64,000 nucleotides of DNA. Origin: Marispirochaeta sp. Its GTDB lineage: Bacteria; Spirochaetota; Spirochaetia; JC444; Marispirochaetaceae. Under the pieces are notes generated by a model, which saw only the letters and a list, made by a program, of their open reading frames with translations, was not told where the DNA came from and searched no databases. Of the stretch, positions 36,155-54,419 are shown in pieces. Position numbers and translations under genes: made by a program. Numbering within the stretch: the first letter of the stretch is position 1; each line of letters begins with the position of its first letter. The stretch is taken from assembly GCA_963676835.2 (NCBI GenBank), contig CAXXFF010000003.1:768001-832000 (forward strand). Reading direction: 5' to 3'.

Positions 36155-36178
36155 AACCCGGCTTTTATGAGCCGGGTT
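36155..36178. terminator. Intergenic hairpin
   Basis: aacccggct-tttatg-agccgggtt. Confidence 0.5.
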
Positions 36179-36202
36179 AAGTCAGATCAGTACTGATAAA
36201 TC

Positions 36203-36838: not shown

Positions 36839-36939
36839 TCCATCTCTCCTTTCGGCATATAGTTTATTATCAGGTCAAAATTCCATTCCGGTATTGAAAA
36901 AAAACGTTTCTTTTGGAAGTTTTTTAGGCAAAAACAGGA

Positions 36940-38223: not shown

Positions 38224-38253
38224 AATATTGTATGCAACTATACCAGACTTTTT

Positions 38254-40083
38254 CTATTGAGGAAAGAACATCTGCTCTACATATCTGTCCTGAAATTTCG
38301 GCGAAGCCGAAAGCTCAATATACTCCACCTTCGAAGCCAGAGTACCCAGGCGCATATAACTTTCCTCTGAAAGCAGAACCTGAACAGCCCCTGCCCCGGC
38401 GGTGTTCCCGGCAGCAACGATTTTCTCCTCTATTTCACCGGGAAGAAGTCCGATCCCGACGGCGCTGGCGGTATTGATAAAACTGCCGAAGCCGCCGGCG
38501 AGAAAAACCTTGTCAATTTTTTCAGGGCCGATTCCATACTCCTCAAGGAGTATATCTATCCCCGCAGCAACAGATGCCTTGGCCAGCTGTACCTCCCGCA
38601 CATCCCGGGGAGTAAAAATCAGGGGCTGATTATGCCGGTCGGTGGCAAAGATAAAACCGTCTTCAGTCACTCTGGAGGCAAGTACAGATGGAACATTTTC
38701 CGGCAGTTCATCCGGAGGCAATAAGCGTCCGGTGTAGTCCACAATGCCTGTTTCAATAAGTAGTGACGCAAGATCGATTATGCCGGACCCGCAGATACCG
38801 GCAGGCGTTTCACCGGCTATGGTGCTTATCGCAAGATCCTTTTGGGGGCTTAAAGTCACAACGCTTACTGCTCCGGGAATCCCGCCCAGACCACAGGAGA
38901 TGGTAGCACCCTCAAATGCCGGTCCTGCTGCAGTGGAACAGGCAATCATCCGTGAAGAATCACCGATAACCAGCTCACCATTGGTACCCACATCAATAAG
39001 CAGAGACGGCTTATCACAATCCATGAGCCCCGCGGCAGCGATACCGGCGGTAATATCTGCTCCGATAAAACCGGAAATAGACGGAAGCAGAATAACCGGA
39101 AGATACCGGGGAATACGGGGAAAAAGCTGATAACTCGATTCTATGCGCTTTTCGGTAAAAACAGGAATAAAAGGAGAAACCGCAATGTGGCGCGGATCGA
39201 CACCCGCCAGTAGATGCATCATTACTGTGTTACCCGCAACAGCAAGTCCCCGCAGGTCCTCCCAGGGAATCTCTTCTTCTTCGACAAGGCGGAAAACCAT
39301 GGTGGAAATCTGTCTGGCTATTGCCCGCTGCAGCGGTTCCGGACCAGACTCGCTTGCCGCCTGTACCCGTGAGATGACATCCCCTCCCCAGGCCTTCTGC
39401 ATATTGAGGCCCGAGACTACCCGGCAGATATCGCCGTCAGACAGATTGACCAGATAGGCAACTACCGTAGTGGTCCCGATATCAATAGCAATCCCATAAC
39501 CCGGCCCCGCCTCGGGAGACAAAACGCCCCACAGATGCCCCTCCAGGGTAGAGATTTTAAGACCATCTCTGTTTTTCCGCATCATAAGCATCAACTCTTC
39601 GAGAAGAGGAAGCGGAACTGAGGCATCCTCTATTCCATGCTGCTCTTTCAGAGCCTCACGAAAACGTACCGCGTCGCAGCGCTGGTCCTGTAAGCTGGGT
39701 TCCGACAGAATTATGGGCGCTGTTTTCAAAGGAGAATCAATAGCCCCTGCGTAGACTTTATGCTCTGTAACAATCTTCACTCCGTGGGAAGTAAAAAGAG
39801 GTGTAACGGTTAAATCTCCGGTAACCTTGACCATACAGGCTAAACGCTCCCCTTTTTCCAGTGAAACCGGAGAAAGAAATTTTGTCTCCTCCGTACAGGG
39901 AGAGGGAACTGAAGATCCCTCAAGGAGAACCCTGCATTTACCGCAGGTACCATTGCCGCCGCAGGGGGCATCAAAATCGAAATCTTCAAAGCCCTGCAGC
40001 GCTTCCAGCAGGTTAACACCGGATTCAACTGTCCGGGTTTCTTCGAGACCTTCTCTGAGCAGAGTGAGTTGTATGGTGTTCAT
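38254..40083 (-). CDS. Reductive activator of corrinoid proteins (RACo, 2Fe-2S plus ASKHA)
   Basis: CGGNGTCGKC, DIGTTT, DVGTNGE, GPAFEG, GICGSG, QLAKA, LAGGFG. Confidence 0.9.
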   Translation of the reverse strand: MNTIQLTLLREGLEETRTVESGVNLLEALQGFEDFDFDAPCGGNGTCGKCRVLLEGSSVPSPCTEETKFLSPVSLEKGERLACMVKVTGDLTVTPLFTSHGVKIVTEHKVYAGAIDSPLKTAPIILSEPSLQDQRCDAVRFREALKEQHGIEDASVPLPLLEELMLMMRKNRDGLKISTLEGHLWGVLSPEAGPGYGIAIDIGTTTVVAYLVNLSDGDICRVVSGLNMQKAWGGDVISRVQAASESGPEPLQRAIARQISTMVFRLVEEEEIPWEDLRGLAVAGNTVMMHLLAGVDPRHIAVSPFIPVFTEKRIESSYQLFPRIPRYLPVILLPSISGFIGADITAGIAAAGLMDCDKPSLLIDVGTNGELVIGDSSRMIACSTAAGPAFEGATISCGLGGIPGAVSVVTLSPQKDLAISTIAGETPAGICGSGIIDLASLLIETGIVDYTGRLLPPDELPENVPSVLASRVTEDGFIFATDRHNQPLIFTPRDVREVQLAKASVAAGIDILLEEYGIGPEKIDKVFLAGGFGSFINTASAVGIGLLPGEIEEKIVAAGNTAGAGAVQVLLSEESYMRLGTLASKVEYIELSASPKFQDRYVEQMFFPQ

Positions 40084-40355
40084 ATATAGAAAGAATGGTA
40101 TCATGGGTCTGAAAATTCGGCATGGTATATAACGGTGAACCTTAGTAAAAAGTTATCATCTTCACTGCAAATACCTCAAGATCCGATTGATACTACCGAT
40201 TCTAACATGTATCATATCATATACATCAACAGAAAAAAGTGCTTCCGGCAGAAAACCAAATCTACCGGAAAATGAAATTTTCTCGATGTTATGTATATCA
40301 ACAATAAAGAGATATATGAAACTTTCACCTACATGCAAGTGAGGCGTTCAACAAC

Positions 40356-41114
40356 ATGGCTGATTTCCTACTCTCATTCGGACTTACACCTTCCGCATGG
40401 TTTCTAATTGCACTCTGCGTAGCCTTTATGGGTGCAAATAAAACCGGGATTGTCGGAATAAATCTCATTGCAGTCCCTATTCTTGCGACTATCTTCGGAG
40501 GCAAAGCCTCCACTGGAATTCTAATGCCTTTTATGGTGATGGCTGATATAGTGGCGGTCATCTCATACCGCAAATCAATACGATGGAAAGAGTTAATATT
40601 CCTTTTACCATGGACACTTATAGGTATTACTATTGGCTTGTTTGTAGGTCAGTACAGTTCTGATGCAATCTTCAAAATTTACATCGCTGGAGCTATTATT
40701 TTACTTCTCATTCTCTTGCTTCTTTCAGAAGTATTTCGCGTCCGTATTGTTCATGATGAACACTGGTATGTTCCGGTAATAATCGGCGTTGTCGGTGGAT
40801 TCGTTTCAATGATAGGAAATGCAGCAAGTCCCATTGTTTCAATCTACTTTATAGCCCTGCACTTAAGCAAACACGAGTACATTGCAAGCAGGGCCTGGTT
40901 CTTCTGGATAGTAAATCTAATTAAAATACCACTTCATGTTTTTATCTGGCACACGATAACACTGAGATCTTTTCTATTTAACCTCACACTTTCACCGTTG
41001 ATCCTGATCGGTGCGGGCATAGGGCTCCTAGTTGTTCATAAAATACCAGAAAAACCATATAAAATTCTTATAATAGCGACAACATTTCTATCTGCGATAT
41101 TAATGATAGTCTGA
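40356..41114 (+). CDS. TauE/SafE (TSUP) family exporter
   Basis: Multi-TM protein; GANKTG, IGNAASP, FFWIVNLIKIP. Confidence 0.82.
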   Translation: MADFLLSFGLTPSAWFLIALCVAFMGANKTGIVGINLIAVPILATIFGGKASTGILMPFMVMADIVAVISYRKSIRWKELIFLLPWTLIGITIGLFVGQYSSDAIFKIYIAGAIILLLILLLLSEVFRVRIVHDEHWYVPVIIGVVGGFVSMIGNAASPIVSIYFIALHLSKHEYIASRAWFFWIVNLIKIPLHVFIWHTITLRSFLFNLTLSPLILIGAGIGLLVVHKIPEKPYKILIIATTFLSAILMIV

Positions 41115-41172
41115 CCGTTTGTATACGGCCAGACTATTTGCACCATCGGTGTAATAATATTAAGGTATACTA

Positions 41173-41922
41173 TTAATGAAAGACTTTTCCCGCATCCACT
41201 ACCAGAGTCTGCCCGGTTATGCTATCGGTTTTAATAAATGTTAAAACAGCGTCTGCGACATCATCCTTGTCAGCAGCTCTTTTCAACAGTACTGAATCAC
41301 GAGACGCCTGTGTATACTCAGGCGCAAGATTGTTGGTCATCCGCGTACCTTCCATAAGCCCTGGGGCAACATCATTAACCAAGATATCAGGAGCAAGAGA
41401 CATGGCAAGACATTTTGATAAATGTATAAGAGCTGCTTTTGATACTGCATAGGCTATGGAACTGGCCATGGGGTATAACCCGCCAATTGATGATATTGTT
41501 ACAATCCGTCCACCACCTCTTTTTTTCATCATCGGAGCAGCCTTTCTTGCGGCAAGGTATGGAGAAGTAAGATTAAAATTCATAATGTAATTCCACTTAT
41601 CAGCATCAAGGGATTCCAGGTCTTTGAAATCTATCCACTCGTTATAAGCAGCATCAAGAACCAGAATATCAACACCGCCGAAGGATTTTTCAGCAGCGGT
41701 AAACATGGCGTCAATCCCTGCTTCGGTAGTGATATCCGCCTGTACCGCAATACTCTCAGCACCAAGTTCAGAAAGTTTTTTTACATTTTCTTCAGCTTTA
41801 TCTTTTGATTTTGCATAAACCATGCAAAGCTTTGCTCCTTGTTGTGCCAAGCTTAAACATACCCGCCATCCCAGACCTCCAGTGGATCCGGTAACCACTG
41901 CAACTTTATCTTTAATTTCCAT
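41173..41922 (-). CDS. SDR family oxidoreductase
   Basis: TGSTGGLG, YAVSK, VAPG, TGQTLVVDAG. Confidence 0.88.
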   Translation of the reverse strand: MEIKDKVAVVTGSTGGLGWRVCLSLAQQGAKLCMVYAKSKDKAEENVKKLSELGAESIAVQADITTEAGIDAMFTAAEKSFGGVDILVLDAAYNEWIDFKDLESLDADKWNYIMNFNLTSPYLAARKAAPMMKKRGGGRIVTISSIGGLYPMASSIAYAVSKAALIHLSKCLAMSLAPDILVNDVAPGLMEGTRMTNNLAPEYTQASRDSVLLKRAADKDDVADAVLTFIKTDSITGQTLVVDAGKVFH

Positions 41923-42009
41923 AACGCTTCTCCTTTTCACTTACTGGACCGTATCAACCGGATGGACCAGACCTGAAACATGGAAAAAATAAACCAAGAG
42001 AAGCTATTA

Positions 42010-42705
42010 TTAAACTTCCCCGCTTTTTTCTCCAGATTCCGGCTCATCACCGCAGTTGCCATTTTTCTCCAGCGAATCCAATATCCATGCAACGCCGTCA
42101 CAAATCTGCTCACGCATTGCTGATTCTGCGCTGTTGCAATCTTTTATCTCTATAGCATCTATTACACGTTGGTGCTGCTTAAGCGCCTTCCGGCCATTCT
42201 CGACATAGACTTCACCCCGGCCTGTTACTGCAAACAGATTTGTCAGAACATGGGTATGCATAATATTATCAAGGTGGGAATTGCCGGCAATTGCGACCAC
42301 CTTCTCGTGAAACTCAATATCCGCGGTAAGACAGACTTTGGCATCTTCTGTTTCAATTCCAGCCTTAAGAATTTCACACTGATTACGCAGCTCCTGAACA
42401 TCCTGCTCGGTGGCTTTCTCGCATGCCAGCCGGGCACTCAAGCCTTCCAGAACCTCCCGAAGCTGATAAAACTCGATAATATCCTGCCGTGTCAGCTTAC
42501 GAACAAAGGTCCCTCGGCGGGGAAGAATTACAACAATCCCCTCTCTCTCCAGCCGCAGAAACGCTTCTTTCAGCGGGGTTTGACTTACCCCAAGCTGCTT
42601 TCCCAACTCATCATACATAAGCCTGTCACCAGGTGACAGGCGACCACTGATGATCCATTCTTTAAGTGTGATATAAGCTTCTTCGCCTAAAGTACGGTTA
42701 AGCAC
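42010..42705 (-). CDS. GntR family regulator (FCD)
   Basis: GVSQTPLKEA, PRRGTFV, DIEFH. Confidence 0.88.
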   Translation of the reverse strand: MLNRTLGEEAYITLKEWIISGRLSPGDRLMYDELGKQLGVSQTPLKEAFLRLEREGIVVILPRRGTFVRKLTRQDIIEFYQLREVLEGLSARLACEKATEQDVQELRNQCEILKAGIETEDAKVCLTADIEFHEKVVAIAGNSHLDNIMHTHVLTNLFAVTGRGEVYVENGRKALKQHQRVIDAIEIKDCNSAESAMREQICDGVAWILDSLEKNGNCGDEPESGEKSGEV

Positions 42706-42790
42706 AAACGTTTACCTTACTATTCCGCAACTCCAAACATTATAACCAACACCAAAAAATATGAGTGCGAAGTCTAAACTGTTTGGAAAA

Positions 42791-43795
42791 TCAGCGGATT
42801 CTTCCTGTAACCTTTCGAACAAACATATCAAAGAAAACGGCTCCGATTACGACGATTCCTGTTATCAGAGAATGAGCCAGAGCGGAAACTCCCAGAAGAT
42901 TCATACCATTAACAATTAAGGTTAATATCAAAGCTCCAATAATTGTTCCACCGACTCCGCCTTCTCCGCCGAGCATGTTCGTTCCGCCCATCATGACACA
43001 AGCAATGGTAATAAGCAAGAAAGGATCACCCATAGCCAACTCTGCTGCATCTAAACGTGCAGTCTGCAGCATTCCTGCAATAGCAGCAGTTACAGCACAC
43101 AGACCGTATACAGCCACAGTAACCCTGCGTGTTTTTACACCGGAGTAATAAGCGGCATTCCGGTTTGCCCCGATTGAGTAAATATATAACCCGAATAATG
43201 TACGAGATAATATGAAATGCATGATAAGGCATAAAACTGCTGTTATAATTACTATGACCGGTAACGGCCCAATATGCCCCGTTCCGAGAAAACGGAATCC
43301 TGACGGAAGCCCGAAAATTATCTGTCCCTGCATGAGAACCATTGCAAGTCCGCGGGCTATCCAGAGAATCCCGTAGGTCGCGACAAAAGCAGGCAGCCCG
43401 ACATACCCGATAAGGACTCCGTTCAGCATACCCAATACCAACGCGGCAGCAATGGCTATAACAGCAGCAAAGGCTATACCGTGCCCCTGCCGCATTAAAT
43501 ATGCAGCCAGACAGCCGGCAAGAGTCATTGTTCCGCCGATGGAAAGGTCTATTCCGCCGGTCAAAATAACTGCCGTCATTCCAAGAGCCAGGACCAGAAG
43601 CACGGAAGCCTGCCTCATAACATTTACGATATTTGGTATGGTAAGAAATTTATCAGCAATAAGTGCAAAAATAAATCCCAGGACAAAAACACTGCTGACC
43701 CGTAAAGCCGGAGCGAGGAAGTCCTTCATGGTTAATCCGTTTAACATCATGCCTAACCGGAACTTCCGTGTCTGCAAACTATCAAGATCACTCAT
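42791..43795 (-). CDS. Sugar ABC transporter permease (CUT2)
   Basis: GGIDLSIG, YSIGAN..A.YSG. Confidence 0.9.
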   Translation of the reverse strand: MSDLDSLQTRKFRLGMMLNGLTMKDFLAPALRVSSVFVLGFIFALIADKFLTIPNIVNVMRQASVLLVLALGMTAVILTGGIDLSIGGTMTLAGCLAAYLMRQGHGIAFAAVIAIAAALVLGMLNGVLIGYVGLPAFVATYGILWIARGLAMVLMQGQIIFGLPSGFRFLGTGHIGPLPVIVIITAVLCLIMHFILSRTLFGLYIYSIGANRNAAYYSGVKTRRVTVAVYGLCAVTAAIAGMLQTARLDAAELAMGDPFLLITIACVMMGGTNMLGGEGGVGGTIIGALILTLIVNGMNLLGVSALAHSLITGIVVIGAVFFDMFVRKVTGRIR

Positions 43796-44763
43796 TTATA
43801 TGCTCCTTGCATCTGGAAGGTCTTTCTATACAACACATCAAGGACAATCGCTGCTACAACAACAGTTCCGATCAGAAGGAACTGGTACATATTAACAACG
43901 CCTGCAATATTCAAACCATTACGCAGGACAACAATTAGAAGAACGCCGAGGATTGTTTTATTAATGCTGCCCCGCCCCTCCTCAAAGGACGTACCGCCTA
44001 TCAGAGTAGCTGCCAATGCATCAAATTCCCAATCAAGACCGGCACCAGCATTACCTGATGCTGTTCTGGCAGCAACAACAACACCGGCAACCCCGTACAG
44101 TGTTCCTGCTGCAACAAATACCCAGGTAGTGGCACGTTTGATATTAGTACCGGCCAACCTCAGTGCCTGCTTGTTTCCGCCAAGGCCGTATACATTTCTT
44201 CCAAAAGCAGTCCGGTTCATCATTATCCACATAACAAGGAAAACAATAGCGGCAATTATTACCGGAAGCGGGATCCCAACTATTTTTCCTTCCGCAATGA
44301 AACGAAATTTCCGGTCCAGAGCAGCAACAGACAGGCCTCCTGTAAAAATCAGCCCTAAACCGAATGCAATGTTACCTACCCCAAGGGAGGCAATAAACGG
44401 GGACAATCCACCACGGGCAACAAGGATACCATTACAAAAACCGAACATCGCGCCCATGAAGATTCCGCCCATAATCGCAATGGGAATAGGCATTCCAATT
44501 TTCAGCAGGAATGCCGTCGCTACAGAACAGAACCCAAGCACCCATCCTACCGAGAGATCAATTCCCTCTGTCAGAATTACAATAGTTTCACCTATGGCTA
44601 CAATCAGCAACGGTGATGCCTGTACTGCGATATTCGAAAAATTTGATAAAGAGAAAAATCCTTTTGCAAAGATAATCCAAATGAACATCAGGACCAGACT
44701 AATCCAGATAACCGGCGGAACACTCAGGAAGCGCGCCTTCATACTATTTCTTGGAATATTCAC
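43792..44763 (-). CDS. Sugar ABC transporter permease (CUT2)
   Basis: EGIDLSVG, YGLGGN..AL.LAG, IGGTS. Confidence 0.9.
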   Translation of the reverse strand: MNIPRNSMKARFLSVPPVIWISLVLMFIWIIFAKGFFSLSNFSNIAVQASPLLIVAIGETIVILTEGIDLSVGWVLGFCSVATAFLLKIGMPIPIAIMGGIFMGAMFGFCNGILVARGGLSPFIASLGVGNIAFGLGLIFTGGLSVAALDRKFRFIAEGKIVGIPLPVIIAAIVFLVMWIMMNRTAFGRNVYGLGGNKQALRLAGTNIKRATTWVFVAAGTLYGVAGVVVAARTASGNAGAGLDWEFDALAATLIGGTSFEEGRGSINKTILGVLLIVVLRNGLNIAGVVNMYQFLLIGTVVVAAIVLDVLYRKTFQMQGAYK

Positions 44764-44764
44764 A

Positions 44765-46276
44765 CTATGCTCCTTTCGCCGCTTTAGCGGTACCCAGCAT
44801 TAAAGCGGCAACATTATCCTGCGTCGCTTCCGCATGACCGATTTCTCCAACAATTTCTCCATGATACATGACATAGATACGATCACACATTCCAATTACT
44901 TCCGGAAGATCGGATGATATCATCAGTACTGCGGTGCCGTCGTTCACCAGCTGATCCATCAGCCCGTGAATTTCCGCCTTGGCACCAACATCTATGCCCC
45001 TAGTCGGTTCATCAAAAATTATCAGTCGTGAATTAGTCTGCAGCCATTTTGCGATAACAACCTTTTGCTGATTCCCCCCACTCAGGTTTGAAACAAGCTG
45101 ACGGGTTGAAGGAGTTGCAATACGAAGTTCTTCAACATGCTTCCCGGCAATTTCTGCAGCCTTCCTTGGATGAAAGACAAATTTAAAGATACGATGAAAA
45201 CTTGCCAGTAATACATTGAATGAGACAGAAAGACGAAGAGCAAGACCAAGATCTTTTCGATCTTCCGGTATCAGCGAAAGTCCAGCATCTATCATCTTTG
45301 AAGGAACAGTGCGTAATGAACGTTTTTTACCAAAAAGCTGAATTTCACCAGACTCAAACCGATCTATTCCAAAAATTGCCCTTGCCAGCTCTGTCCTTCC
45401 TGCACCTACAAGACCGGCCAAACCAACGACTTCTCCCTCATGCAAAGTCAGATTGACATTCCGGGGTCCGTTTTCCACTGAACAATTTTCCAGACGAAGA
45501 ACCTCCTTTCCAGGTTCCCTTCGGTTTCGCGGATACATGCAGTCTATAGTGCGACCAACCATCAGCTGGACAAGTTCGTCATCGGTAATATCTGCAATCG
45601 GAATAGTGCTGACCCATTTACCGTCCCGCAATACGGTTACCCGGTCTCCAATCTCACGGATCTCCTGCAAACGATGTGAGACATACACAATCGCAGTCCC
45701 TTCAGCTTTCAACTTTCGTATTTTTTCAAAGAGAAGATCAACTTCACTCTCAGATAATATTGCCGTAGGCTCATCCAGAATAAGAACCTTTGGTTCGGCA
45801 ACCAGGATCTTTGCAATCTCAACCATCTGTTTCTGTGCAGAAGTAAGGAGTTTGACAGGAGTCCTGGGATCGATATCTACGCCTAGTGTACTCAGGATAT
45901 TTAAAGCATTAGAGAACATGGTTTTCTGGTCGATAAATGGTGACCCGGGTCGACTTTTCGGTTCTCTGTTACAGTAGATATTATTTGCCGCGCTCAACCA
46001 CGGTATCAGCATCAATTCCTGATTTACACCGCCGATTCCTTCACGAAGTGCGTCGGCGGGCACACGAAAATCCACCGGAGAACCATTCAGAAGTATTTCA
46101 CCCCTGTCAGGCAGCTGCGCGCCTAGAATAAGACTCCCGAGAGTACTCTTTCCAGCTCCATTTTCACCAATAAGAACATGAACCTCTCCTGGAACAATAT
46201 CGAAACTTACGTCATCAAGTGCGGTTACTCCGGGAAATGTTTTGGTTATATTTCTCAACTCTATTACAGGTTTCAC
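44765..46276 (-). CDS. Sugar ABC transporter ATP-binding protein (RbsA-like)
   Basis: GENGAGKST, LSGGNQQK, DEPTRGIDVGAK. Confidence 0.93.
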   Translation of the reverse strand: MKPVIELRNITKTFPGVTALDDVSFDIVPGEVHVLIGENGAGKSTLGSLILGAQLPDRGEILLNGSPVDFRVPADALREGIGGVNQELMLIPWLSAANNIYCNREPKSRPGSPFIDQKTMFSNALNILSTLGVDIDPRTPVKLLTSAQKQMVEIAKILVAEPKVLILDEPTAILSESEVDLLFEKIRKLKAEGTAIVYVSHRLQEIREIGDRVTVLRDGKWVSTIPIADITDDELVQLMVGRTIDCMYPRNRREPGKEVLRLENCSVENGPRNVNLTLHEGEVVGLAGLVGAGRTELARAIFGIDRFESGEIQLFGKKRSLRTVPSKMIDAGLSLIPEDRKDLGLALRLSVSFNVLLASFHRIFKFVFHPRKAAEIAGKHVEELRIATPSTRQLVSNLSGGNQQKVVIAKWLQTNSRLIIFDEPTRGIDVGAKAEIHGLMDQLVNDGTAVLMISSDLPEVIGMCDRIYVMYHGEIVGEIGHAEATQDNVAALMLGTAKAAKGA

Positions 46277-46310
46277 GGGTTCTTCCCTTTTAAGTTTTTA
46301 CTGCCACAAC

Positions 46311-46339
46311 CAGACTGATAGCGCCATGCTATCAGTCTG
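46311..46339. terminator. 12-bp hairpin between binding-protein and ATPase genes
   Basis: cagactgatagc-gccat-gctatcagtctg. Confidence 0.55.
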
Positions 46340-46400
46340 CTGTGAACAAAAGCCGATTGTTATAGACAACCAGCTATTATCTGGTTACCGTTCAAAACGT

Positions 46401-47492
46401 CTAGTCGACCTTCCACCATGCCAGATTATCGATGTAGTTCTTTACATTATCCTTGGTGATAATTGCCTCAGGCATTGTCTCGGGATTCGGATAGGGGACG
46501 TACTTCGGAGGAGGCAGAGTCCCGTTGTCCAGATAATCGACAAGGTATGCTGCGGCAAGCCAGGCTGCTGAAGGAGGATCAGAATTAAAGGTTACATCAA
46601 CACGTCCTTCAAGGAGGGCATGGCTGAAATCTTCGTTTGCGTCAAATCCTGCAATAAGAATATCTTTACTGAGTCCTGCTGCTTCTATAGCCTGAAGAGC
46701 CCCCATGGCTTCTTCGTCATTTGCACCGATAACGGCATCAATTTCATCCCCGTAACGCTGAACAAGGTTTTCCATTGCCTGCATTGCATCGGTCCGACGG
46801 AAATTAGCCGGCTGTTCGGCAAGGATCTTTATATTCGGATATCTTGCCAGAGAATCATGAATGCCTTTATCTCTTTCATGGGCATTCTGAGCCTGTGGAG
46901 GTCCGGAAAGATTAATAATATTTCCTGTGCCACCCATTTTTTCTGCCACCCACTCGGCAATAACATAACCTGTCATATAGTATGCTGTACCAAGATGAAC
47001 CAGTTTCATATCAGTTTGAGCATTAGTACCGATTACGGCCACGGGAATACCGGCATTCACCGCTTTTTCAACAGCAGGAACAATTCCAACTGAGTCCGCC
47101 GGGTGAATTGCAATACCATTTACCCCCCGCTGAATCAGGTCTTCAATAATCTTTGCCTGTTCTTCTACATTATCCTGCTTGGCTGGCGCAAGGGTGACAT
47201 ATTCAAATCCCATTGAATCACCAGCTTTTTCGAAACCGCCAAGCTGTGCAATCATGTATGGATTTGTAGTATTCTTCACGATACAAGCCAAAAGGTAATC
47301 ACCTTTTGCACGTACATCGGAAGTAACACCCCAGCCGATTCCATCGATTGGATAATCGAATTCATCTGTGCTGGCCATCTGCTCCGGCATAGAACCAGTT
47401 TCACCTGAAGAATCTTGTCCTCCTGCGGCCCAGAGGCCGGGAGCAAGCAACAACAGTGTCAGCATAAGGATAGCTACTTTACTTTTCCTCAT
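46401..47492 (-). CDS. Sugar ABC transporter substrate-binding protein
   Basis: Signal peptide, NPYM, AGIPV, ANDEEAMGA, AGFDA. Confidence 0.88.
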   Translation of the reverse strand: MRKSKVAILMLTLLLLAPGLWAAGGQDSSGETGSMPEQMASTDEFDYPIDGIGWGVTSDVRAKGDYLLACIVKNTTNPYMIAQLGGFEKAGDSMGFEYVTLAPAKQDNVEEQAKIIEDLIQRGVNGIAIHPADSVGIVPAVEKAVNAGIPVAVIGTNAQTDMKLVHLGTAYYMTGYVIAEWVAEKMGGTGNIINLSGPPQAQNAHERDKGIHDSLARYPNIKILAEQPANFRRTDAMQAMENLVQRYGDEIDAVIGANDEEAMGALQAIEAAGLSKDILIAGFDANEDFSHALLEGRVDVTFNSDPPSAAWLAAAYLVDYLDNGTLPPPKYVPYPNPETMPEAIITKDNVKNYIDNLAWWKVD

Positions 47493-47566
47493 GTTTTTCC
47501 TCCTTAGGTTGTGACCTATTTTTTTAAGCCGACAACGTCGGCTTTATAAACCTTACAGCAGTCTTT

Positions 47567-48631
47567 CTATTCACCGTATACTTTGGACTTTTTCCAGTCA
47601 TAACGTTCACGCCAGTCCGGATATTTGTAACGCCCGATATCCTGGTCATCAGGATAGGTAAACATGCCGCCAGCGCGCATAATAACAGTCTTCATTTCAG
47701 GTTTATTCTGTTTAACTATCCATTCGAGCTGATCAGGATCGATAACAGAGCTTGCCCAGTTTTCATAGTGGTCGGGAATGAGGACTTTAGTTCCAATAGC
47801 CTCAGCAATCCTGAAAAGATCGTATGGACTGCATTTATCGGTACCGCCGGGTGCGTTGTATCCCATATCGCATATCATGACATCGATATCAGTATTTCTT
47901 TTTCCAATACTGGCAAACGCATCACTATAGATGGCGTCCCCGAGAAACATCGCTTTTCCACCAGAATTCTTGAAGATATAAGAAACAGCAACATCATCCA
48001 TTGTGACCTTGTCCACACTGTCGAGCCCCGTAGTAGTCCGGTAAACCATTTCGTCAAAATTCTTCTCTACAAGGACTTCAGTCTCATCAAATTTCAAAAC
48101 ATCCCCGGGTTTTACTTCTCTGATCCGGTCTTCAGGAACACCCCATTTTCTGAACATCCGGCAGGTAACCCGTGGTCCGACAAAGAGAGCTTTTGTAGTT
48201 TCAAGCAACGGCTTTACGGTATAGATATCGCAGTGGTCGGAATGATGATGAGTAGAGAAGGATGCATCAATCTTTTTGAACTTCCAGGGGTCGATAACCT
48301 GTGGGTTCAGACGCAGCCAGTGAAGGTGGCTTGCTCCTGTTGTCTGTGAAGGGCCGCAGTTTTCATAGCGAGTAACAAGGGATGGTCCTGCATAATTATC
48401 GATTAAAAAAGTATCATCACCTGATTTATATCCCCAAGATGGTCCTCCGAACCACCAAAGTCCGAATTTTCCCTTAGGCATTACGGTATTTGCTATCTGC
48501 TGGTTGAGATAGGTTCCCCAGGGAGGAAAACATTCTCTAATCCAGTCATCTCTGGTTAATGTGCGTTCCTCTAATATTGATGTTGCTTCAACAATCCCAT
48601 ATTCGTCTCTTTTCACACTATCTTCAGCCAT
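47567..48631 (-). CDS. UlaG-like metallo-beta-lactamase-fold lactonase
   Basis: TRDDWIRECFPPWG, WWFGG, THHHSDH, WGVPEDRI..KPGD, GDAIYS, IPDHYENW; colinear with E. coli UlaG as recalled. Confidence 0.8.
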   Translation of the reverse strand: MAEDSVKRDEYGIVEATSILEERTLTRDDWIRECFPPWGTYLNQQIANTVMPKGKFGLWWFGGPSWGYKSGDDTFLIDNYAGPSLVTRYENCGPSQTTGASHLHWLRLNPQVIDPWKFKKIDASFSTHHHSDHCDIYTVKPLLETTKALFVGPRVTCRMFRKWGVPEDRIREVKPGDVLKFDETEVLVEKNFDEMVYRTTTGLDSVDKVTMDDVAVSYIFKNSGGKAMFLGDAIYSDAFASIGKRNTDIDVMICDMGYNAPGGTDKCSPYDLFRIAEAIGTKVLIPDHYENWASSVIDPDQLEWIVKQNKPEMKTVIMRAGGMFTYPDDQDIGRYKYPDWRERYDWKKSKVYGE

Positions 48632-48840
48632 TTTCAGCCTCCATGATTGATTTATTTGTTGAAAACCATTCTAAATCCGGAATCATGTGCCGTCAATATT
48701 TTTTCAAAAATATTTTTTCTTTTTTATATTTTTGAATGTATTGCCAAATTACTTTCTCCCCTCACGAAGTTTCCAACGGGAAATTGTAAAAAGAGGAATA
48801 ATATATAGACGTAAACAAATGAATTCTTTACTATTGAAAC

Positions 48841-49575
48841 ATGAACCAATTGTCAGACGATAAAACAATACTTGAGAAGATACAGCAGAAAACCGTTGTT
48901 TCTCAGGTTATGGAAAAAATCAAGGAACTCATTACCTCCGGCATGTACAAACCGGGAGATAAAATACCTACAGAACACGAGCTTGCAGACCGCTTCGGTA
49001 TTGGCCGCTCATCAATCCGGGAAGCGATAAAAATCTTTCAGCACCTTGGAATTCTCGAATCCAGGGTTCCAAAGGGAACCTTTCTCTGTTCCCGCAGCCA
49101 GGTCTCCACAGAAGCAATCAGCTGGTCTCTCCTTCTCGGCGATGATGACATGTGGGAAATTATGGAGCTCAGGGAAATTATTGAAGAAAAGGCCTTCCGC
49201 TCCATGATGCGGATAATAGCCGGCTCTCCGGAAAAAGCAGATGAAATTACAGGAAATCTGGAAATGATTGTAATAAACATGAGGGAAGCAGTTAAGACTG
49301 AATCTCTCAAGGATCTTATAAAAGCTGACTTCAACTTTCATGCCGCAGTGATCCGCTCCGGCGACAATGCCCTTTTCTTTTCCATATATCAGACTCTCCA
49401 CTCCTTTATGCATGAAGAAATCCGCCAGACCTATGCAAACATGAAAGACCTCAATGAAGTTGCAGCAGATCATGAAGAGATTCTTGCAGCCATTAAAAGC
49501 GGCGATATCCCCAGTGCCACCGCCAGGCACAGTGCACATTTCCAGAGAATATCAAGTCTTCTGGTTGGAAAGTAG
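48841..49575 (+). CDS. FadR/GntR family regulator
   Basis: PTEHELA..GRSSIREA, DFNFH. Confidence 0.9.
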   Translation: MNQLSDDKTILEKIQQKTVVSQVMEKIKELITSGMYKPGDKIPTEHELADRFGIGRSSIREAIKIFQHLGILESRVPKGTFLCSRSQVSTEAISWSLLLGDDDMWEIMELREIIEEKAFRSMMRIIAGSPEKADEITGNLEMIVINMREAVKTESLKDLIKADFNFHAAVIRSGDNALFFSIYQTLHSFMHEEIRQTYANMKDLNEVAADHEEILAAIKSGDIPSATARHSAHFQRISSLLVGK

Positions 49576-49627
49576 CTAAACAGGAAAATAAGATCCGGTG
49601 GTGAAAAATTGTTGACACACACAATCT

Positions 49628-49640
49628 ATTGTCATACAAT
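49628..49640. promoter_or_regulatory. Putative FadR-type operator
   Basis: Palindrome attgtcatacaat in the transaldolase promoter; related ttgtcagacga just inside the fadR start. Confidence 0.5.
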
Positions 49641-49677
49641 CCGATAATCGTCACATAAAACAAATAAGGAGATAATA

Positions 49678-50766
49678 ATGGGAAACTGGAAGGGACCGCT
49701 CCACGAAATGACCGGCACTTCTCCAACGGAATTCTGGAATGATTCATGTTCAAAGAAAGAGTTGTCATATGCTATTGAGAACGGTGCCAGCGGAGGAACC
49801 AGCAATCCGGTAATAGTTGGCAATGTACTTAAACAGGAACTGCCCGATTGGGAACCACGGATAAAAGAACTTTTTAATGAAATTCCCGAAGCCACAGAGG
49901 AAACTGTTGCCTGGAAAATAATAGAGGAGATGACTGTAAGCGCTGCGGAGCTTCTTAAACCTCAGTTTGATGCTTCCAAAGGAAAAAAAGGGCGCCTCTC
50001 CATTCAGACCGATCCCCGGCTTTTCCGGGACGGAAAAAAAATGGCCGCCCAGGCTGCTCACTTTGCCTCACTCTACCCCAATAACAATATCAAAATGCCC
50101 GTAACAAAAGCGGGAATCTATGCTTTCGAAGAGGCCACCTACCAGGGAATCAGCGTAAATGCCACAGTCTGTTTTACCGTTCCCCAGAGCCTTGCTGTCG
50201 CAGAGGCAGTGGAGCGGGGTCTGAAGCGCCGGGAGCAGGAGGGTAAGGATATTTCCACCATGAACCCGGTTTGTACCATCATGGTAGGCCGCCTTGATGA
50301 CTGGATTAAAATTGTAGCCGACCGTCAGGGAATAATCACCGATCCCGGTGTATTTGAATGGGCAGGTGTGGCTGCGATGAAAAAAGCCTACAGGATTTAT
50401 AAGGAAAGGGGCTATCGAACTATCCTGCTGGCAGCAGCCTACAGGAACCATATGCACTGGTCCGAATTTATCGGCGGAGAGCTTTCCATGACCATTCCTT
50501 ACGGCTGGCAGAAAAAATTCAACGCCTCGGACGTAACCGTAGAAAACAGAATCGACAAGCCCGTTGATCCCTGGATTATGAAAGAACTGGAAACCAAATT
50601 CAGCGAGTTTAACCGGGCCTACGCCGAAGACGGTCTTGCCCCGGAAGAATTTGAATCTTACGGCGCGACCAGACGCACTCTGCGTTCATTTAACTCAGGT
50701 TATCAGGATCTCTTGAACATGATCCGTGATATAATGGTGCCGGATCCCGATATTGCCGGGAAATAG
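49678..50766 (+). CDS. Transaldolase family protein (atypical WNDS subtype)
   Basis: FWNDSC, GTSNP, SIQTDP, IKMPVT (Schiff-base Lys), NATVCF, MVGRLDD. Confidence 0.85.
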   Translation: MGNWKGPLHEMTGTSPTEFWNDSCSKKELSYAIENGASGGTSNPVIVGNVLKQELPDWEPRIKELFNEIPEATEETVAWKIIEEMTVSAAELLKPQFDASKGKKGRLSIQTDPRLFRDGKKMAAQAAHFASLYPNNNIKMPVTKAGIYAFEEATYQGISVNATVCFTVPQSLAVAEAVERGLKRREQEGKDISTMNPVCTIMVGRLDDWIKIVADRQGIITDPGVFEWAGVAAMKKAYRIYKERGYRTILLAAAYRNHMHWSEFIGGELSMTIPYGWQKKFNASDVTVENRIDKPVDPWIMKELETKFSEFNRAYAEDGLAPEEFESYGATRRTLRSFNSGYQDLLNMIRDIMVPDPDIAGK

Positions 50767-50793
50767 GCATTGTAAAAAGGAGATTTGCACATA

Positions 50794-52269
50794 ATGAGAA
50801 AGCTACAGAACTTTGTAAACGGTAAATGGGTTGATCCCGCCGGCGCATCTTATCTTGATGTTGAAAACCCCAGTACAGGCGACACCATTGCTCAGGTTCC
50901 TCTTACCTCCAAAGAAGAGACGGACAAAGCAATAGAAGCAGCTCATACTGCCTATCTTGAATGGAAAAATGTGCCTGTATCCCGCAGAGTAAATTATCTC
51001 TTCAAGCTGCGTACCCTGCTTGAAGAAAATGAAGAAAAAATCAGCCGTATTCTGGTTGAAGAGATGGGAAAATCTCTGCCCGATGCAAGAGCGGAGATGA
51101 AGCGGGTATTTGAGAATGTGGAGGTTGCCTGCGGAATGCCGGTACTGCAGCAGGGCGATAAACTGATTGGAGCATCCTTTGAAATGGACGGAGAAGTTAT
51201 CCGCCTGCCCATGGGTGTCTTTGCCATGATTGCCCCCTTCAACTTCCCAGCCATGGTGCCCTTCTGGTTTCTCCCCTACGCTATTGCCACCGGCAACTGT
51301 TATGTCGTAAAGGCTTCCAAACAGGTACCGGGCACCATGAACTTTATTACCGAGCTTATTGAACAGACAGGCCTTCCTGCCGGTGTTTTCACCCTGCTCA
51401 ATGGAGATAAAACCGTTGCAAATGCGTTTATGGAAAATCCCCTCATACAGGGAGTCTCTCTTGTAGGCTCAACACCTACCTGTAAGGTAGTTGCCCGTAA
51501 ATGCGGAGAACAGGGAAAACGGTTCCAGGCCATGGGGGGTGCAAAAAACCACCTGGTGGTAATGCCCGATGCCCGCATCGATGACGTAATCCGCAACATG
51601 ATTACCTCCTGTTTCGGATGCGCCGGACAGCGCTGTATGGCGGCATCGGCAATCGTCTGCGTAGGTGACGATACGTATAAAACTGTGACTGATAAATTTG
51701 TGGCTGCAGCTAAAGAGGTAATTACCACAAACCCCCTTGATCCCTCCGTGGCAGACGAAGGAATGGTAATGGGACCGGTTATTTCAGCCAAAGCAAAAGA
51801 GTTTATTATCAAGATGATCGATACCGGAGTGGAAGAAGGAGCCGAACTCCTTCTGGATGGACGGGGTCTTGAAATAAAAGGGTATGAGAAAGGTCATTTT
51901 GTAGGAGCTACGGTATTCGGCAAGGTGAAACCGGGCATGCAGATTCACTCAACCGAAATCTTCGGACCCGTTGTGGTTATCCTGAAAGTTGACAACCTGG
52001 ATGAAGCCATTAAGATCATAAACGATCATCAGTATGGTAACGGCGCCTCCATCTATACCCAGAACGGATATTATGCACGGAAGTTTAAAATAGACACCAA
52101 TGCCGGGATGATCGGTATAAATGTCGGGATTCCTGCACCGGTGGCCTACCTTCCCTTTGGTGGCATGAAAAACTCACAGCTGGCCGATATCAAGGCTCAG
52201 GGAAAGGCGGTGGTTAATTTCTTTACGGAAGATAAAATTGTTACCGAACGTTTCTGGCAGGAACCTTAA
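50794..52269 (+). CDS. CoA-acylating (methyl)malonate-semialdehyde dehydrogenase-like ALDH
   Basis: PFNFPAM, GGAKNH, GCAGQRCMA, EIFGP, GINVGIPAP. Confidence 0.85.
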   Translation: MRKLQNFVNGKWVDPAGASYLDVENPSTGDTIAQVPLTSKEETDKAIEAAHTAYLEWKNVPVSRRVNYLFKLRTLLEENEEKISRILVEEMGKSLPDARAEMKRVFENVEVACGMPVLQQGDKLIGASFEMDGEVIRLPMGVFAMIAPFNFPAMVPFWFLPYAIATGNCYVVKASKQVPGTMNFITELIEQTGLPAGVFTLLNGDKTVANAFMENPLIQGVSLVGSTPTCKVVARKCGEQGKRFQAMGGAKNHLVVMPDARIDDVIRNMITSCFGCAGQRCMAASAIVCVGDDTYKTVTDKFVAAAKEVITTNPLDPSVADEGMVMGPVISAKAKEFIIKMIDTGVEEGAELLLDGRGLEIKGYEKGHFVGATVFGKVKPGMQIHSTEIFGPVVVILKVDNLDEAIKIINDHQYGNGASIYTQNGYYARKFKIDTNAGMIGINVGIPAPVAYLPFGGMKNSQLADIKAQGKAVVNFFTEDKIVTERFWQEP

Positions 52270-52395
52270 TATGAGAGACCAACGAGACTAGAATATATGC
52301 ATCATCCGCCAAAGCATCTGATGATAACATCATATACTCTTGTTGTTTAATGATTATCAACCATTTATACTGTCCATCATGAGAGGTATCTTGAG

Positions 52396-53127
52396 ATGGA
52401 CATTAAACAGGTCAAACAGCGAACAGTGGCATTTCAGGTTATTGAGCAGTTGAAGCAGCTGATAGCGGCTGGATCATTAAAGCCTGGTGATAAAATGCCA
52501 AATGAATATGAATTAGCCGAACTGTTTGGTGTAGGACGTTCAACTATTAGAGAAGTTCTGAAGATCTTTCAATACCTGGGTATAATAGAACTCAGGAATC
52601 CAAAGGGTACGTATATATGCGACAGCACAAAAATTTCATCTGAAGCGTTTATATGGTCAATACTGCTTGGCAAGAAAGATTTTGCTGAAATAAGCGAACT
52701 CCGTACAGCCATGGAACATCAGGGATTATGGTCTCTAATGCAGCTCCACAGGAACGATCAGAAACAAAGAGAAAAGACCATACAACTCCTTGAAGATGAA
52801 ATCGCTACAATGCGTGGCCCCGTGTACAATTCTCCGGATTACCAGATTATTGCAGATTTTAATTTCCATGGGCACATAATAGCAGTGTGCAACAACGAAT
52901 TATTTAGTAACATTTACCGCACAGTTCGTGAATTTCTTATTTCTGGAATAAAAAACTCACTGAACGTGCATGGTCTCAGCACCAACCTGCCTGAAGAACA
53001 CGAATATCTGGTAGAAGCACTCAGAGAAAACAACTACCAGAAAGCAGTTGAACTATTCAGAGCTCATCATGTATTACCTGGGGCAGAACCTCCTGCTCAC
53101 AATCCAACCGCAAGCTCCCAGTCGTAG
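52396..53127 (+). CDS. FadR/GntR family regulator (paralog of 48841)
   Basis: PNEYELA..GRSTIRE, ADFNFH; 3' end overlaps tolC by 31 bp. Confidence 0.85.
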   Translation: MDIKQVKQRTVAFQVIEQLKQLIAAGSLKPGDKMPNEYELAELFGVGRSTIREVLKIFQYLGIIELRNPKGTYICDSTKISSEAFIWSILLGKKDFAEISELRTAMEHQGLWSLMQLHRNDQKQREKTIQLLEDEIATMRGPVYNSPDYQIIADFNFHGHIIAVCNNELFSNIYRTVREFLISGIKNSLNVHGLSTNLPEEHEYLVEALRENNYQKAVELFRAHHVLPGAEPPAHNPTASSQS

Positions 53128-54419
53128 TAGAGTGCTCTGTAGGTATACAGGGCATACTGGAGGTTCATACTGGACTGAGCCAGATTTGTCCCCGCCTGGG
53201 AAACCGCCAGCTGAGTCCCCAATCCATTTGCAAGAGCTGCGCGGGAGAGCGCATACGCCCTTTCTGTAGCATCTTTCAGAACCCTGGCGGAATCAATCCG
53301 TTTTCGGGCTTCCTGCATCTGAAGATTCAGGGAAAGCAGTTCCTGCTCGATTTCGTCCTGCTTTTTGAGGATTTCCAGACTGCGCTTCTCTTTCTCTATG
53401 GATGCACTGCGAACAAGGGATGTACGGTATCCTCCGGTATACACCGGCATTGAAACAGTAACGCCAAGCTGCATGCTGGTGAAATCATAATCGCTGAATG
53501 AAGTTCCGTTTCCATATCCACCGACCGCATAGGAGAAACTGGTGCTGACAGTAGGCAGAAATGAAGCCAGAGCCGCCTTTTTGGCTATATCTGCAATTTC
53601 CCGCGCAATTACCTGAGCCTGATAGTCTCCCCGCTTATTCAGCACCTCAATGAACGAAAGTTCACCGGGCAGATCCGGAAGCTCTTCCTGATCCTCCACC
53701 AGGGTAATTTCTTTGTCCGGTTCTATTCCCCCCAGCATTTTCAGGCCCATCATGGCAAGGTCGGCATTTTTCCGCGCTTCAGCGGTGGCGGATATTGCAC
53801 TTTTCCAATCTACTTCCGCCATACGCAGATCCAGTTCGGTCACCACCCCGGCCTCATATTTTTTTTGGATATTCTCATAGACTTCACTTGAAGTCTTCTC
53901 AAGATCAGCCTGAACATCCGCAATGGCATAGGACAGCTGAACCTGGGCATAAAGTTTCTTCGCAGCGGTCAGTATGCTCTTGCGGGTGAAGGTATCCACA
54001 TTTCCCTGAATCTGGCGGTTACGCCTTGCCTGTGCATAGCGGGCAGTTGCCTCGGGATTCAGGATTGTCTGGCTTATCCCCGCTGCAAGGGTCAGCTCAT
54101 TATCCATGTTGGTATCCACATCCTGAAAGACCAGAGGTTGTCCGGCACCGGCAGAGGCCACTGCGGTGGACTGCATAATATCTGTCAGGTTGCGCACATA
54201 ATCCGCGGAAACTCCCACAGCAGGCAGCAGGGCCGCACGTGCCTGTACAACACTTTCTGAGGCGGATGCCACATTCTGTCTGGACAGAGCGATATCCGGA
54301 TTGTCCGAAGAGACCTTCTGCAGATAATCCTCAAGACTGAGATCCTCTCCAAAGAGTGAAGTACCGGCAAGAAGCAGAAGGACAGACAACAGTAAGCTTA
54401 ATAAGAGTGATTTGTTCAT
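53097..54419 (-). CDS. TolC family outer membrane protein
   Basis: ARAALLP, KYEAGVVTELD, ASFLP, SMPVYTGG. Confidence 0.85.
   Translation of the reverse strand: MNKSLLLSLLLSVLLLLAGTSLFGEDLSLEDYLQKVSSDNPDIALSRQNVASASESVVQARAALLPAVGVSADYVRNLTDIMQSTAVASAGAGQPLVFQDVDTNMDNELTLAAGISQTILNPEATARYAQARRNRQIQGNVDTFTRKSILTAAKKLYAQVQLSYAIADVQADLEKTSSEVYENIQKKYEAGVVTELDLRMAEVDWKSAISATAEARKNADLAMMGLKMLGGIEPDKEITLVEDQEELPDLPGELSFIEVLNKRGDYQAQVIAREIADIAKKAALASFLPTVSTSFSYAVGGYGNGTSFSDYDFTSMQLGVTVSMPVYTGGYRTSLVRSASIEKEKRSLEILKKQDEIEQELLSLNLQMQEARKRIDSARVLKDATERAYALSRAALANGLGTQLAVSQAGTNLAQSSMNLQYALYTYRALYYDWELAVGL

Follow-up and report, generated by a model that had tools for sequence, protein, structure and literature searches.

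Lactonase-importer genes beside an atypical transaldolase-like enzyme at a probably composite locus of Marispirochaeta sp.

Results

Gene content of the locus

The stretch analysed here, hereafter the window, comprises 64,000 nucleotides of Marispirochaeta sp. (assembly GCA_963676835.2, contig CAXXFF010000003.1:768,001-832,000); coordinates are window positions unless a genome or locus is named. The host genome, G000, is that of a spirochaete, is 97.3% complete and is close to relative L001. Twelve genes were confirmed at 40356-53127 and assigned to families with Pfam and NCBIfam (Table 1). They encode a TauE-family exporter, a UlaG-like lactonase, an ATP-binding cassette (ABC) importer, a short-chain dehydrogenase/reductase (SDR), a transaldolase-like enzyme (gene tal), a (methyl)malonate-semialdehyde dehydrogenase (MMSDH, gene mmsdh) and three GntR regulators. 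The genes fall into three strand groups, namely tauE on the forward strand, the seven genes from ulaG-like to the SDR gene on the reverse strand, and gntR2, tal, mmsdh and gntR3 on the forward strand. The cluster has at least three transcription units, and tauE is convergent with the SDR gene, a point absent from an earlier reading made from the sequence alone.

The gene set listed in that sequence-only reading, with three GntR regulators, is borne out. No phosphotransferase system (PTS), kinase, dehydratase or UlaD/E/F was detected among the 12 genes with Pfam and NCBIfam, and tblastn of 40356-53127 with PfkB, FGGY, DhaK/L, IlvD, UxuA, fructose-bisphosphate aldolase of class II (FBA-II), RpiB and Iol queries gave no match at E≤1e-3. 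In the X1 run a single contig covers 38011-56000 with zero differences. Because X1 is possibly the source sample, the contig counts against misassembly, which is unsupported, yet gives no independent support.

Table 1. Positions of genes and predicted regulatory features in the window.
Feature	Position	Strand	Remarks
TauE/SafE-family small-anion exporter (tauE)	40356-41114	+	PF01925, 91.8 bits; placed by synteny in the tal module rather than the ABC operon
Module B, putative inserted block: ulaG-like, binding protein, ATPase, permease, permease, gntR1, SDR	41115-48826	-
Classical SDR, FabG/FabL-like, probably NADP(H)-dependent	41173-41940	-
GntR/FCD regulator 1 (gntR1)	42010-42705	-	PF00392 and PF07729
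CUT2 ABC importer, two permeases and ATPase	42791-46276	-	PF02653 (twice), PF00005
RbsB-fold binding protein, small subfamily	46401-47492	-
UlaG-like lactonase, metallo-β-lactamase (MBL) fold, divergent subfamily	47567-48631	-	NF008688, 223.7 bits (cut-off 306)
Sigma70-like promoter candidate, module B	48668-48696	-	10/12 consensus match only; 31 sites found against 24 ± 5 expected
FadR-type GntR regulator 2 (gntR2)	48841-49575	+	tal neighbour kept in relatives
Predicted tal-mmsdh promoter	49612-49640	+	11/12; palindrome TTGT-N3-ACAA (49629-49639) on the -10 box
Atypical transaldolase-family enzyme (tal, TAL_FSA), 362 aa	49678-50766	+
CoA-acylating MMSDH (mmsdh)	50785-52269	+	TIGR01722, 507.9 bits (cut-off 448.5)
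GntR/FCD regulator 3 (gntR3)	52396-53127	+	39% paralogue of gntR2; L001 counterpart 97%

The region probably consists of two modules

Comparison with L001 by blastn divided the cluster. Window segments 33287-40127 and 48827-59440 align at about 82% and part of tauE at 69%; nothing aligns in between, where about 29 bp of L001 replace the 7.7-kb ulaG-ABC-SDR block (41115-48826). The L001 order is tauE-gntR2-tal-mmsdh-gntR3, with the tauE homologue 42 bp before gntR2; the last four proteins are 88-98% identical to those of the window, and tal-mmsdh 96-98%. The UlaG-like protein has no match in the L001 genome (0/1), and the block as such was not found in five of five congeners. The reverse case is seen in G633, where the ulaG-like, binding-protein, ATPase and two permease genes are kept in window order at 46-52% identity and the window transaldolase has no match. 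Orthologues of the CUT2 importer genes, 44-54% identical and in the same order, are present in G633, G431 and G509.

Co-occurrence was counted in two sets of loci. No UlaG gene lies in any of 100 transaldolase loci (80 and 20 from two homologue sets, of which one pair is duplicated, leaving 99 distinct). Conversely, a window-type transaldolase, MMSDH, SDR and TauE are each found in 0 of 52 UlaG-family loci (50 kept when two weak partial matches were dropped, plus L157 and L231), many of which are short or redundant gut contigs. The break against L001, the lack of UlaG there and of the block in congeners, the reverse case of G633, these counts and the separate promoter and operator together make it very probable that the region combines two modules that were inherited independently. 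Module A comprises tauE, gntR2, tal, mmsdh and gntR3, and module B the intervening block. A point against this reading is that G497 and G431 carry both the binding-protein subfamily and tal, in separate places. Gain of module B between tauE and gntR2 in G000 would be the simpler history, with loss elsewhere as the alternative. TauE shares only 54% identity with its counterpart in L001 while the flanking genes are at 85-98%, and it was thus probably exchanged along with the insert.

One conserved 12-gene pathway is rejected by the synteny and the co-occurrence counts. The sequence-only reading had treated the genes as one cluster and had itself named co-occurrence in other genomes as the test; the two halves lie together in no related locus examined, and each occurs alone at the genome level. 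A narrower version, in which the block was recruited because its lactonase and SDR make the 5-keto-acid for the transaldolase, would account for the physical adjacency and for the lack of an iol upper pathway in G000. It would also fit the distant (28-30%) transaldolase genes that immediately precede a UlaG-like gene in L141, L142 and L146, and the presence of the tal core in three of the five genomes with the binding-protein subfamily. However, this last fraction is near the background of 22/61, L001 keeps its tal-mmsdh pair with no UlaG match, and the two locus sets show no co-location. Moreover, the promoter region of module B lacks the tal operator palindrome, and the SDR is FabG/FabL-like, its gluconate 5-dehydrogenase match reaching 147.9 bits against a cut-off of 279. 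We therefore regard such recruitment as unlikely.

In L141 (5753-9712) and L146 (8829-11926) the distant transaldolase gene is followed by the UlaG-like gene and then by a gene for a β-keto-acid cleavage enzyme, a separate candidate pathway. By alignment, the L141 and L146 transaldolases have Asn in place of the conserved Asp and no Arg at either anion site.

Active site of the transaldolase-like enzyme

The structural model of the enzyme has a predicted local distance difference test (pLDDT) score of 95.6. Its best fold match is the Neisseria transaldolase 3clm (Z 39.5, root-mean-square deviation 2.0, 322 aligned residues, 22% identity), and the large monomeric transaldolase class is the closest fold. 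All NCBIfam models for transaldolase (TAL) and fructose-6-phosphate aldolase (FSA) score far below cut-off (best 121.7 against 367; FSA model TIGR00875, 33.6 bits against 245.95). In the alignment to 3r5e and 3clm, D22, N43, the Schiff-base lysine K139, N161, T163, R205 and R256 are kept. Q110 is located at the catalytic Glu position and M202 at the Phe/Tyr position; SIEVDP and SLEVSP align to SIQTDP, and ASFFVSR to CTIMVGR. We take the roles of these positions to be those of TalB (E96, F178 and two anion-binding Arg), located by alignment. The titles of Protein Data Bank (PDB) entries naming E96Q/F178Y and E60Q/F132Y variants, and two cited paper titles, agree that these positions form the TAL-FSA switch. 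The E93Q variant 7oey was not used as support, since a different Glu is concerned (PMC8964421).

The substitutions are a property of the family. Over 104 sequences, Q110, K139 and N43 are kept in all 104, D22 in 102 and M202 in 101, and the presumed anion-binding residues R205 and R256 in 102 each. Classical PF00923 enzymes share with the window enzyme the fold, the Asp, the Asn, the Schiff-base Lys, the Asn/Thr pair and the two Arg positions. They differ in that TAL has a catalytic Glu with Phe, and FSA, of about 220 aa, a Gln with Tyr. Thus, as aligned, the Gln/Met active site matches neither TAL nor FSA. The subfamily is large, with at least 8000 relatives at E≤0.001, distant ones included, and 512 matches in the genome collection.

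The Gln at the Glu position, an aldolase-type residue according to the titles cited above, raises the question of an FSA-like aldolase. Such an enzyme would release free dihydroxyacetone, and a dihydroxyacetone or glycerol kinase elsewhere would then spend ATP or phosphoenolpyruvate, so that the route would be kinase-free only locally. A 46% paralogue of the enzyme in G000 does sit with DhaK/DhaL, and another DhaK/L pair lies 18 kb downstream of the cluster. However, the Tyr of FSA is replaced by Met in nearly all members, the large monomeric TAL class is the nearest in fold, and no DhaK was noted beside the listed core-family loci (no query search for DhaK was made); we consider this alternative unlikely.

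Less probable still is that the enzyme is the lineage's ordinary pentose-phosphate transaldolase, acting on fructose 6-phosphate (F6P) and sedoheptulose 7-phosphate and recycling sugar phosphates beside catabolic genes. It is the sole PF00923 match in G431 and G437, and some of its loci, such as L005, have no catabolic neighbours. Against this, the catalytic Glu is replaced, the gene is translationally close to mmsdh and recurs, in different phyla, within iol operons that lack IolC, and only 22 of 61 genomes carry the enzyme. G000 itself has five more PF00923 members (C3:619851-620939, C3:34131-35174, C3:622615-623283, C1:945411-947060 and C2:1917608-1919038). The four with a readable site all have Gln at the catalytic Glu position, which would fit an ordinary role for such enzymes, and no classical transaldolase was identified. 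One is encoded with a tripartite ATP-independent periplasmic (TRAP) transporter, a dihydrodipicolinate synthase-like gene and DhaK/L, and another with an SDR and an IolO-like epimerase.

The family in inositol operons

The commonest neighbours of tal in the first 80 loci are Gfo/Idh/MocA dehydrogenases (35), IolB (26), IolE-like proteins (23), IolD (20) and MMSDH (15). Neighbour representatives exceed the cut-offs for IolG, IolB, IolD and MMSDH, and the IolE representative falls below (205 against 290). With locus labels based on score thresholds that we set ourselves, iolB/D/E genes are found in 34 of the 100 tal loci, and among these 34 a PfkB kinase and a class II aldolase are each found in none. 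An aldehyde-consuming enzyme (MMSDH, acylating aldehyde dehydrogenase, aldehyde ferredoxin oxidoreductase (AOR) or iron-dependent alcohol dehydrogenase) is present in 33 of the 99 distinct loci. IolC exceeds its cut-off in 3 of 34 genomes hand-picked for iol genes beside tal, which favours the bypass discussed below. Among 61 genomes taken without selection, those of G000 and 60 relatives, IolD occurs in nine; seven of these have tal (at least 50% identity), one has IolC and two have neither.

By our own reasoning, 2-deoxy-5-keto-D-gluconate, the IolB product, has the fructose configuration at the two carbons that a transaldolase reads, and its cleavage would yield malonate semialdehyde. As far as gene neighbourhoods can tell, the family context supports a bypass of IolC and IolJ at the family level, and cleavage of an unphosphorylated keto-acid by the transaldolase-like enzyme is probable. 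The lower half of the first scheme in the sequence-only reading, in which transaldolase cleavage gives malonate semialdehyde for MMSDH, fits this context well; its upper half, the feed by lactonase and SDR, fails on co-occurrence.

The lower myo-inositol pathway, in which IolA follows IolC and IolJ or IolC-DUF2090, resembles this scheme in the proposed carbon skeleton and in the conversion of malonate semialdehyde to acetyl-CoA, and kin of the enzyme lie in iolGEDB operons (PMC9007349, PMC9430895, PMC13311982). It differs in its kinase and phospho-aldolase, neither of which is found in the window module. The alternatives described so far, IolC-DUF2090 (PMC9007349) and an FBA proposed as IolJ substitute (PMC13311982), both keep a phosphorylated intermediate. 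In a genome survey, 214 of 1,024 genomes with three core genes were without the fourth, which was put down to sequence problems (PMC9430895). In the available portion of a review (PMC12482443) the words aldolase, iolC and iolJ do not occur.

Several observations weigh against the bypass, or against its extension to the window. Neither known acid-base catalyst is present (Gln110, Met202), and transfer to glyceraldehyde 3-phosphate (GAP) is thus not assured. In the three hand-picked genomes with IolC over cut-off, IolC and the enzyme coexist. On the family tree, built with FastTree, the iol label requires at least 5 to 8 changes, and most iol loci are from Acidobacteriota, whose kin are not independent. 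A Clavibacter plasmid cluster has tal beside a DeoC-annotated aldolase. Moreover, 15 of 52 IolD-negative genomes carry tal, and tal also lies beside IolN/IolO, AOR or no catabolic gene; substrates may therefore differ between clades. In G000 none of IolD, IolE, IolC and IolB is over cut-off, the only related protein being a KduI-type PF04962 member; in control searches of 14 reference genomes, the Iol models were over cut-off in 2 to 5. Finally, IolD is below cut-off in all six tested genomes of the eight-member clade to which the window enzyme belongs.

In L009, L011, L012, L018, L193, L195 and L015, members of the family are found beside Thermotoga-type IolN and/or IolO, whose products (5-keto-L-gluconate and D-tagaturonate) have a different stereochemistry.

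Module A in the Marispirochaeta genome

The mmsdh gene starts 18 bp after tal. All ten PDB matches of its product at E≤1e-80 are MMSDH, and its QRC and KR motifs align with 5tjr; we take the Arg that precedes the catalytic Cys, and a second Arg, to be functional residues of MMSDH/IolA. Homologues of gntR2 (45-63%) flank tal in 11 other spirochaete loci (L003, L004, L006, L014, L016, L041, L195, L199, L203, L205 and L206), and GntR2 is therefore the likely repressor of tal. Of 99 loci, 5 have the palindrome TTGT-N3-ACAA upstream of tal, compared with a mean of 0.38 and a maximum of 3 in 300 shuffles, a control that overstates the enrichment because half of the palindrome coincides with the -10 box. 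No genome-wide regulon emerged: the exact site occurs once, and the relaxed TTGT-N3-ACAA at 26 sites, 10 of them intergenic, with no clear link.

The clade of the window enzyme holds eight spirochaete sequences (Shimodaira-Hasegawa-like support 100); MMSDH is in the locus of six and iol genes in that of none. In the closest loci, L003 and L014, tal-mmsdh stands with a TRAP importer, a fused transketolase and Zn-dependent dehydrogenases. In L190 (7705-18013) it follows an ABC importer, a split transketolase, RpiB, an iron-dependent alcohol dehydrogenase and TauE, with no isomerase in view. These varied upstream genes suggest that an imported aldonate oxidised at C5 is the source of the keto-acid. 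Myo-inositol was rejected as the source in G000, where IolD, IolE and IolB were not found. IolN is present in G000 and not in G403, a relative that keeps tal-mmsdh, and is thus not a required upper pathway. The IolN gene, over cut-off, lies at G000:C2:1013947-1020956 in an operon that also has a GntR regulator, a CUT2 ABC importer and a glyoxalase-like gene but lacks IolG and IolM.

The clade might instead use D-fructuronate or 5-keto-D-gluconate, hydroxylated keto-hexonates whose cleavage would yield tartronate semialdehyde; a divergent MMSDH would then convert this to glycolyl-CoA and CO2. By our own stereochemical reasoning both ketoses are 3S,4R like F6P; G000 makes fructuronate (uxaC and uxaE, 24828-27520), and the gene sets of L003 and L014 would suit such a donor. 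However, two UxuA matches in G000 offer fructuronate an ordinary outlet, and the Zn-dependent dehydrogenases of L003 and L014 are below every equivalog cut-off among the matches listed. We know of no MMSDH activity on tartronate semialdehyde, which also weighs against this donor, and we judge it unlikely. The uxa genes belong to a hexuronate operon on the reverse strand (24828-28347) that includes the UxaE tagaturonate epimerase, UxaC and an SDR.

A sulfonated donor was the second proposal of the sequence-only reading. Here a sulfonated ketose would yield sulfoacetaldehyde or sulfolactaldehyde, and TauE would export the sulfonate. The model is the sulfo-transaldolase (sulfo-TAL) pathway, with SftI/SqvD, SftT/SqvA, SftD/SlaB, the TauE exporter SftE and a GntR regulator (PMC7491151, PMC12890257). 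The proposed module A scheme resembles it in that, with no kinase involved, a transaldolase splits an anionic ketose that is not phosphorylated and an aldehyde dehydrogenase acts next. GntR and TauE genes are nearby in both, and both are generic families. TauE genes lie near tal in the window, L001, L206 and L190, and the L190 neighbours are the family set of the sulfo-transketolase (sulfo-TK) pathway (PMC12890257). However, SftT is a small transaldolase, 41.7% identical to that of Thermoplasma (PMC7491151, PMC12890257), in contrast to the large-class window enzyme with its Gln/Met site. Against 8bc3, of the SftT/SqvA type and the 220-aa class, the window enzyme reaches only E~1e-6 over 70 residues with phmmer, and Z 21.9 in structure (196 aligned residues, 27%), compared with 39.5 for 3clm. 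The sulfo-TAL pathway has a sulfoquinovose isomerase and a glycosidase; neither the isomerase nor a sulfoquinovosidase or other glycosidase is among the 12 genes. The window dehydrogenase is a decarboxylating, CoA-acylating MMSDH by its TIGR01722 score, and matches the SafD model at 213 against a cut-off of 700. TauE of the window type is found in only 2 of 100 tal loci, and in the window it was probably replaced while tal-mmsdh was conserved. The proposal, which draws on TauE and one sulfo-TK-like locus, is thus weak and a sulfonated donor highly improbable. On its family assignment, TauE would more simply be a generic small-anion exporter.

Module B

The UlaG-like protein matches E. coli UlaG (2wyl) with a phmmer E of 6e-53, and its metal residues H128, H130, D132, H133, D193, D232 and H288 are invariant in 15 of 15 aligned homologues. 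UlaG-type spirochaete proteins are 32-39% identical to the window protein, which stands in its own subfamily. The likeness to the E. coli ula system (UlaABC PTS, UlaG, UlaDEF) extends to the UlaG fold, all metal-binding motifs and a similar length (PMC3219644). The differences are an ABC importer in place of the PTS, the lack of UlaD/E/F and an NCBIfam UlaG score below cut-off. More than 55% identity to E. coli UlaG was taken as plausible orthology, and other substrates were allowed for UlaG-like proteins (PMC3219644).

The binding protein scores 131.5 bits against the ribose-binding model (cut-off 337). By comparison with 2ioy, 7e7m, 2gx6 and 1drj it has GT in place of an Asp-Arg pair and Ser in place of a C-terminal Gln, residues that we take to bind the ligand in the ribose-binding protein RbsB. 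Its subfamily is present in 5 of 401 genomes of the class, and in four of the five, the window included, a lactonase gene lies directly upstream. This lactonase is UlaG-like in G000 and G633 and an acylhomoserine lactonase-like MBL protein in G431 and G509. The G431 and G509 operons continue with a class II aldolase-family gene, a RuBisCO-like protein and RpiB; 3-oxo-acid decarboxylases are the best, sub-threshold matches. Other UlaG-subfamily genes are followed by the β-keto-acid cleavage enzyme of L141 and L146 or, in up to 17 redundant gut loci, by TRAP genes, a 3-hydroxyacyl-type dehydrogenase, DhaK/L, RpiB and an IlvD-type dehydratase. No PTS was noted in the UlaG-subfamily neighbour clusters scanned, and an Atlas search returned UlaG-family clusters only.

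Module B most likely imports and opens a lactone, and we infer that the common thread of these operons is an unphosphorylated lactone converted to an aldonate or 3-oxo-aldonate. GntR1 is likely the local regulator of the module. The SDR is over cut-off for no NCBIfam model among the 25 listed, and no informative homologue was found in plasmids (best 38%) or in 400 other genomes of the phylum (E≤1e-70). A 67-68% paralogue ends another CUT2 ABC and amidohydrolase operon (G000:C1:71372). Judged by its sequence, the SDR could oxidise C1 ahead of the lactonase or reduce C3 afterwards at least as plausibly as carry out the C5 oxidation previously assigned to it.

Related clusters and neighbouring genes were also noted. 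L232 (2579-12727) and L233 (8392-18548) have an MBL lactonase, the same ABC subfamily, UPF0261, SorC/DeoR regulators, a class II aldolase, a RuBisCO-like protein (OiaX-like, under cut-off) and RpiB. No kinase was seen in these stretches, which may encode a pathway for branched-chain or 3-oxo sugar acids. An SDR-DhaK-DhaL operon lies about 18 kb beyond gntR3 (G000:C3:839104-841748); its DhaK and DhaL are 63% and 51% identical to those of gut UlaG-subfamily clusters. Window genes at 33794-40104 on the reverse strand form a corrinoid methyltransferase set kept in L001 (RACo/ASKHA reactivase, PocR-AraC, corrinoid protein, URO-D/MtaA-family protein, CobW). A URO-D/MtaA-family gene is also upstream of the L233 lactonase operon, and G000 has a similar-looking gene close to its second UlaG; a link between the corrinoid set and lactonase operons could be O-methylated sugar acids. 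Beyond gntR3, genes at 53097-59354 on the reverse strand, kept in L001, look by sequence like TetR, membrane fusion protein, resistance-nodulation-division and TolC-like efflux genes; the stop of the TolC-like gene overlaps the gntR3 end by 31 bp.

Discussion

From the gene content, the break in synteny, the residue changes, the family context and the conserved operator we infer all the substrates and reactions that follow, as well as the transfer of dihydroxyacetone in preference to its release and the indel's direction. Module A would form the lower end of a kinase-free sugar-acid pathway. Lys139 would form a Schiff base with an unphosphorylated 5-keto-aldonate, most likely 2-deoxy-5-keto-D-gluconate, the terminal carboxylate of which would substitute for phosphate. 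The enzyme would split the C3-C4 bond (ketose numbering), pass the dihydroxyacetone unit to GAP or erythrose 4-phosphate and free malonate semialdehyde, which MMSDH would convert to acetyl-CoA, CO2 and NADH. The FadR-type repressor would govern tal-mmsdh through the operator on the -10 box. Elsewhere the enzyme may replace IolC and IolJ in many bacteria, while in the clade of the window a different upper pathway would have to supply the keto-acid, probably through C5 oxidation of an imported aldonate. By analogy, module A would work like sulfo-TAL and like IolC, IolJ and IolA, as a member of neither.

In module B, the ABC importer would bring in a sugar-acid lactone, the UlaG-like enzyme would open it without prior phosphorylation, and the SDR would reduce or oxidise the product. 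The best explanation of the locus joins all these parts, namely two modules, a keto-aldonate-cleaving transaldolase with MMSDH, FadR-type control and a lactone importer block; taken jointly, they have about an even chance of being correct. A joint kinase-free ascorbate-type route seems quite unlikely. In it the UlaG-like enzyme would yield an unphosphorylated 3-keto-aldonate, the SDR would reduce C3, a Zn-dependent dehydrogenase would oxidise C5, the transaldolase would split the product and a divergent MMSDH would form an acyl-CoA such as glycolyl-CoA. The 3-keto-aldonate is proposed because related genes adjoin β-keto-acid cleavage enzymes, 3-hydroxyacyl-type dehydrogenases and 3-oxo-acid decarboxylase-like proteins.

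In the literature covered, which leaves subscription journals mostly outside, no description was found of a transaldolase bypass or of a PTS-free UlaG route. If this transaldolase subfamily does cleave unphosphorylated keto-acids, it would fill a gap in iolC-less inositol clusters, save one ATP per substrate and extend the logic of sulfo-TAL to carboxylates. Because its Gln/Met site fits neither TAL nor FSA, the enzyme tests the accepted acid-base rule of the family. The pairing of tal with MMSDH under its own FadR-type operator in IolD-less genomes implies at least one more upper pathway. Finally, module B points to a PTS-independent UlaG subfamily for unphosphorylated lactones.

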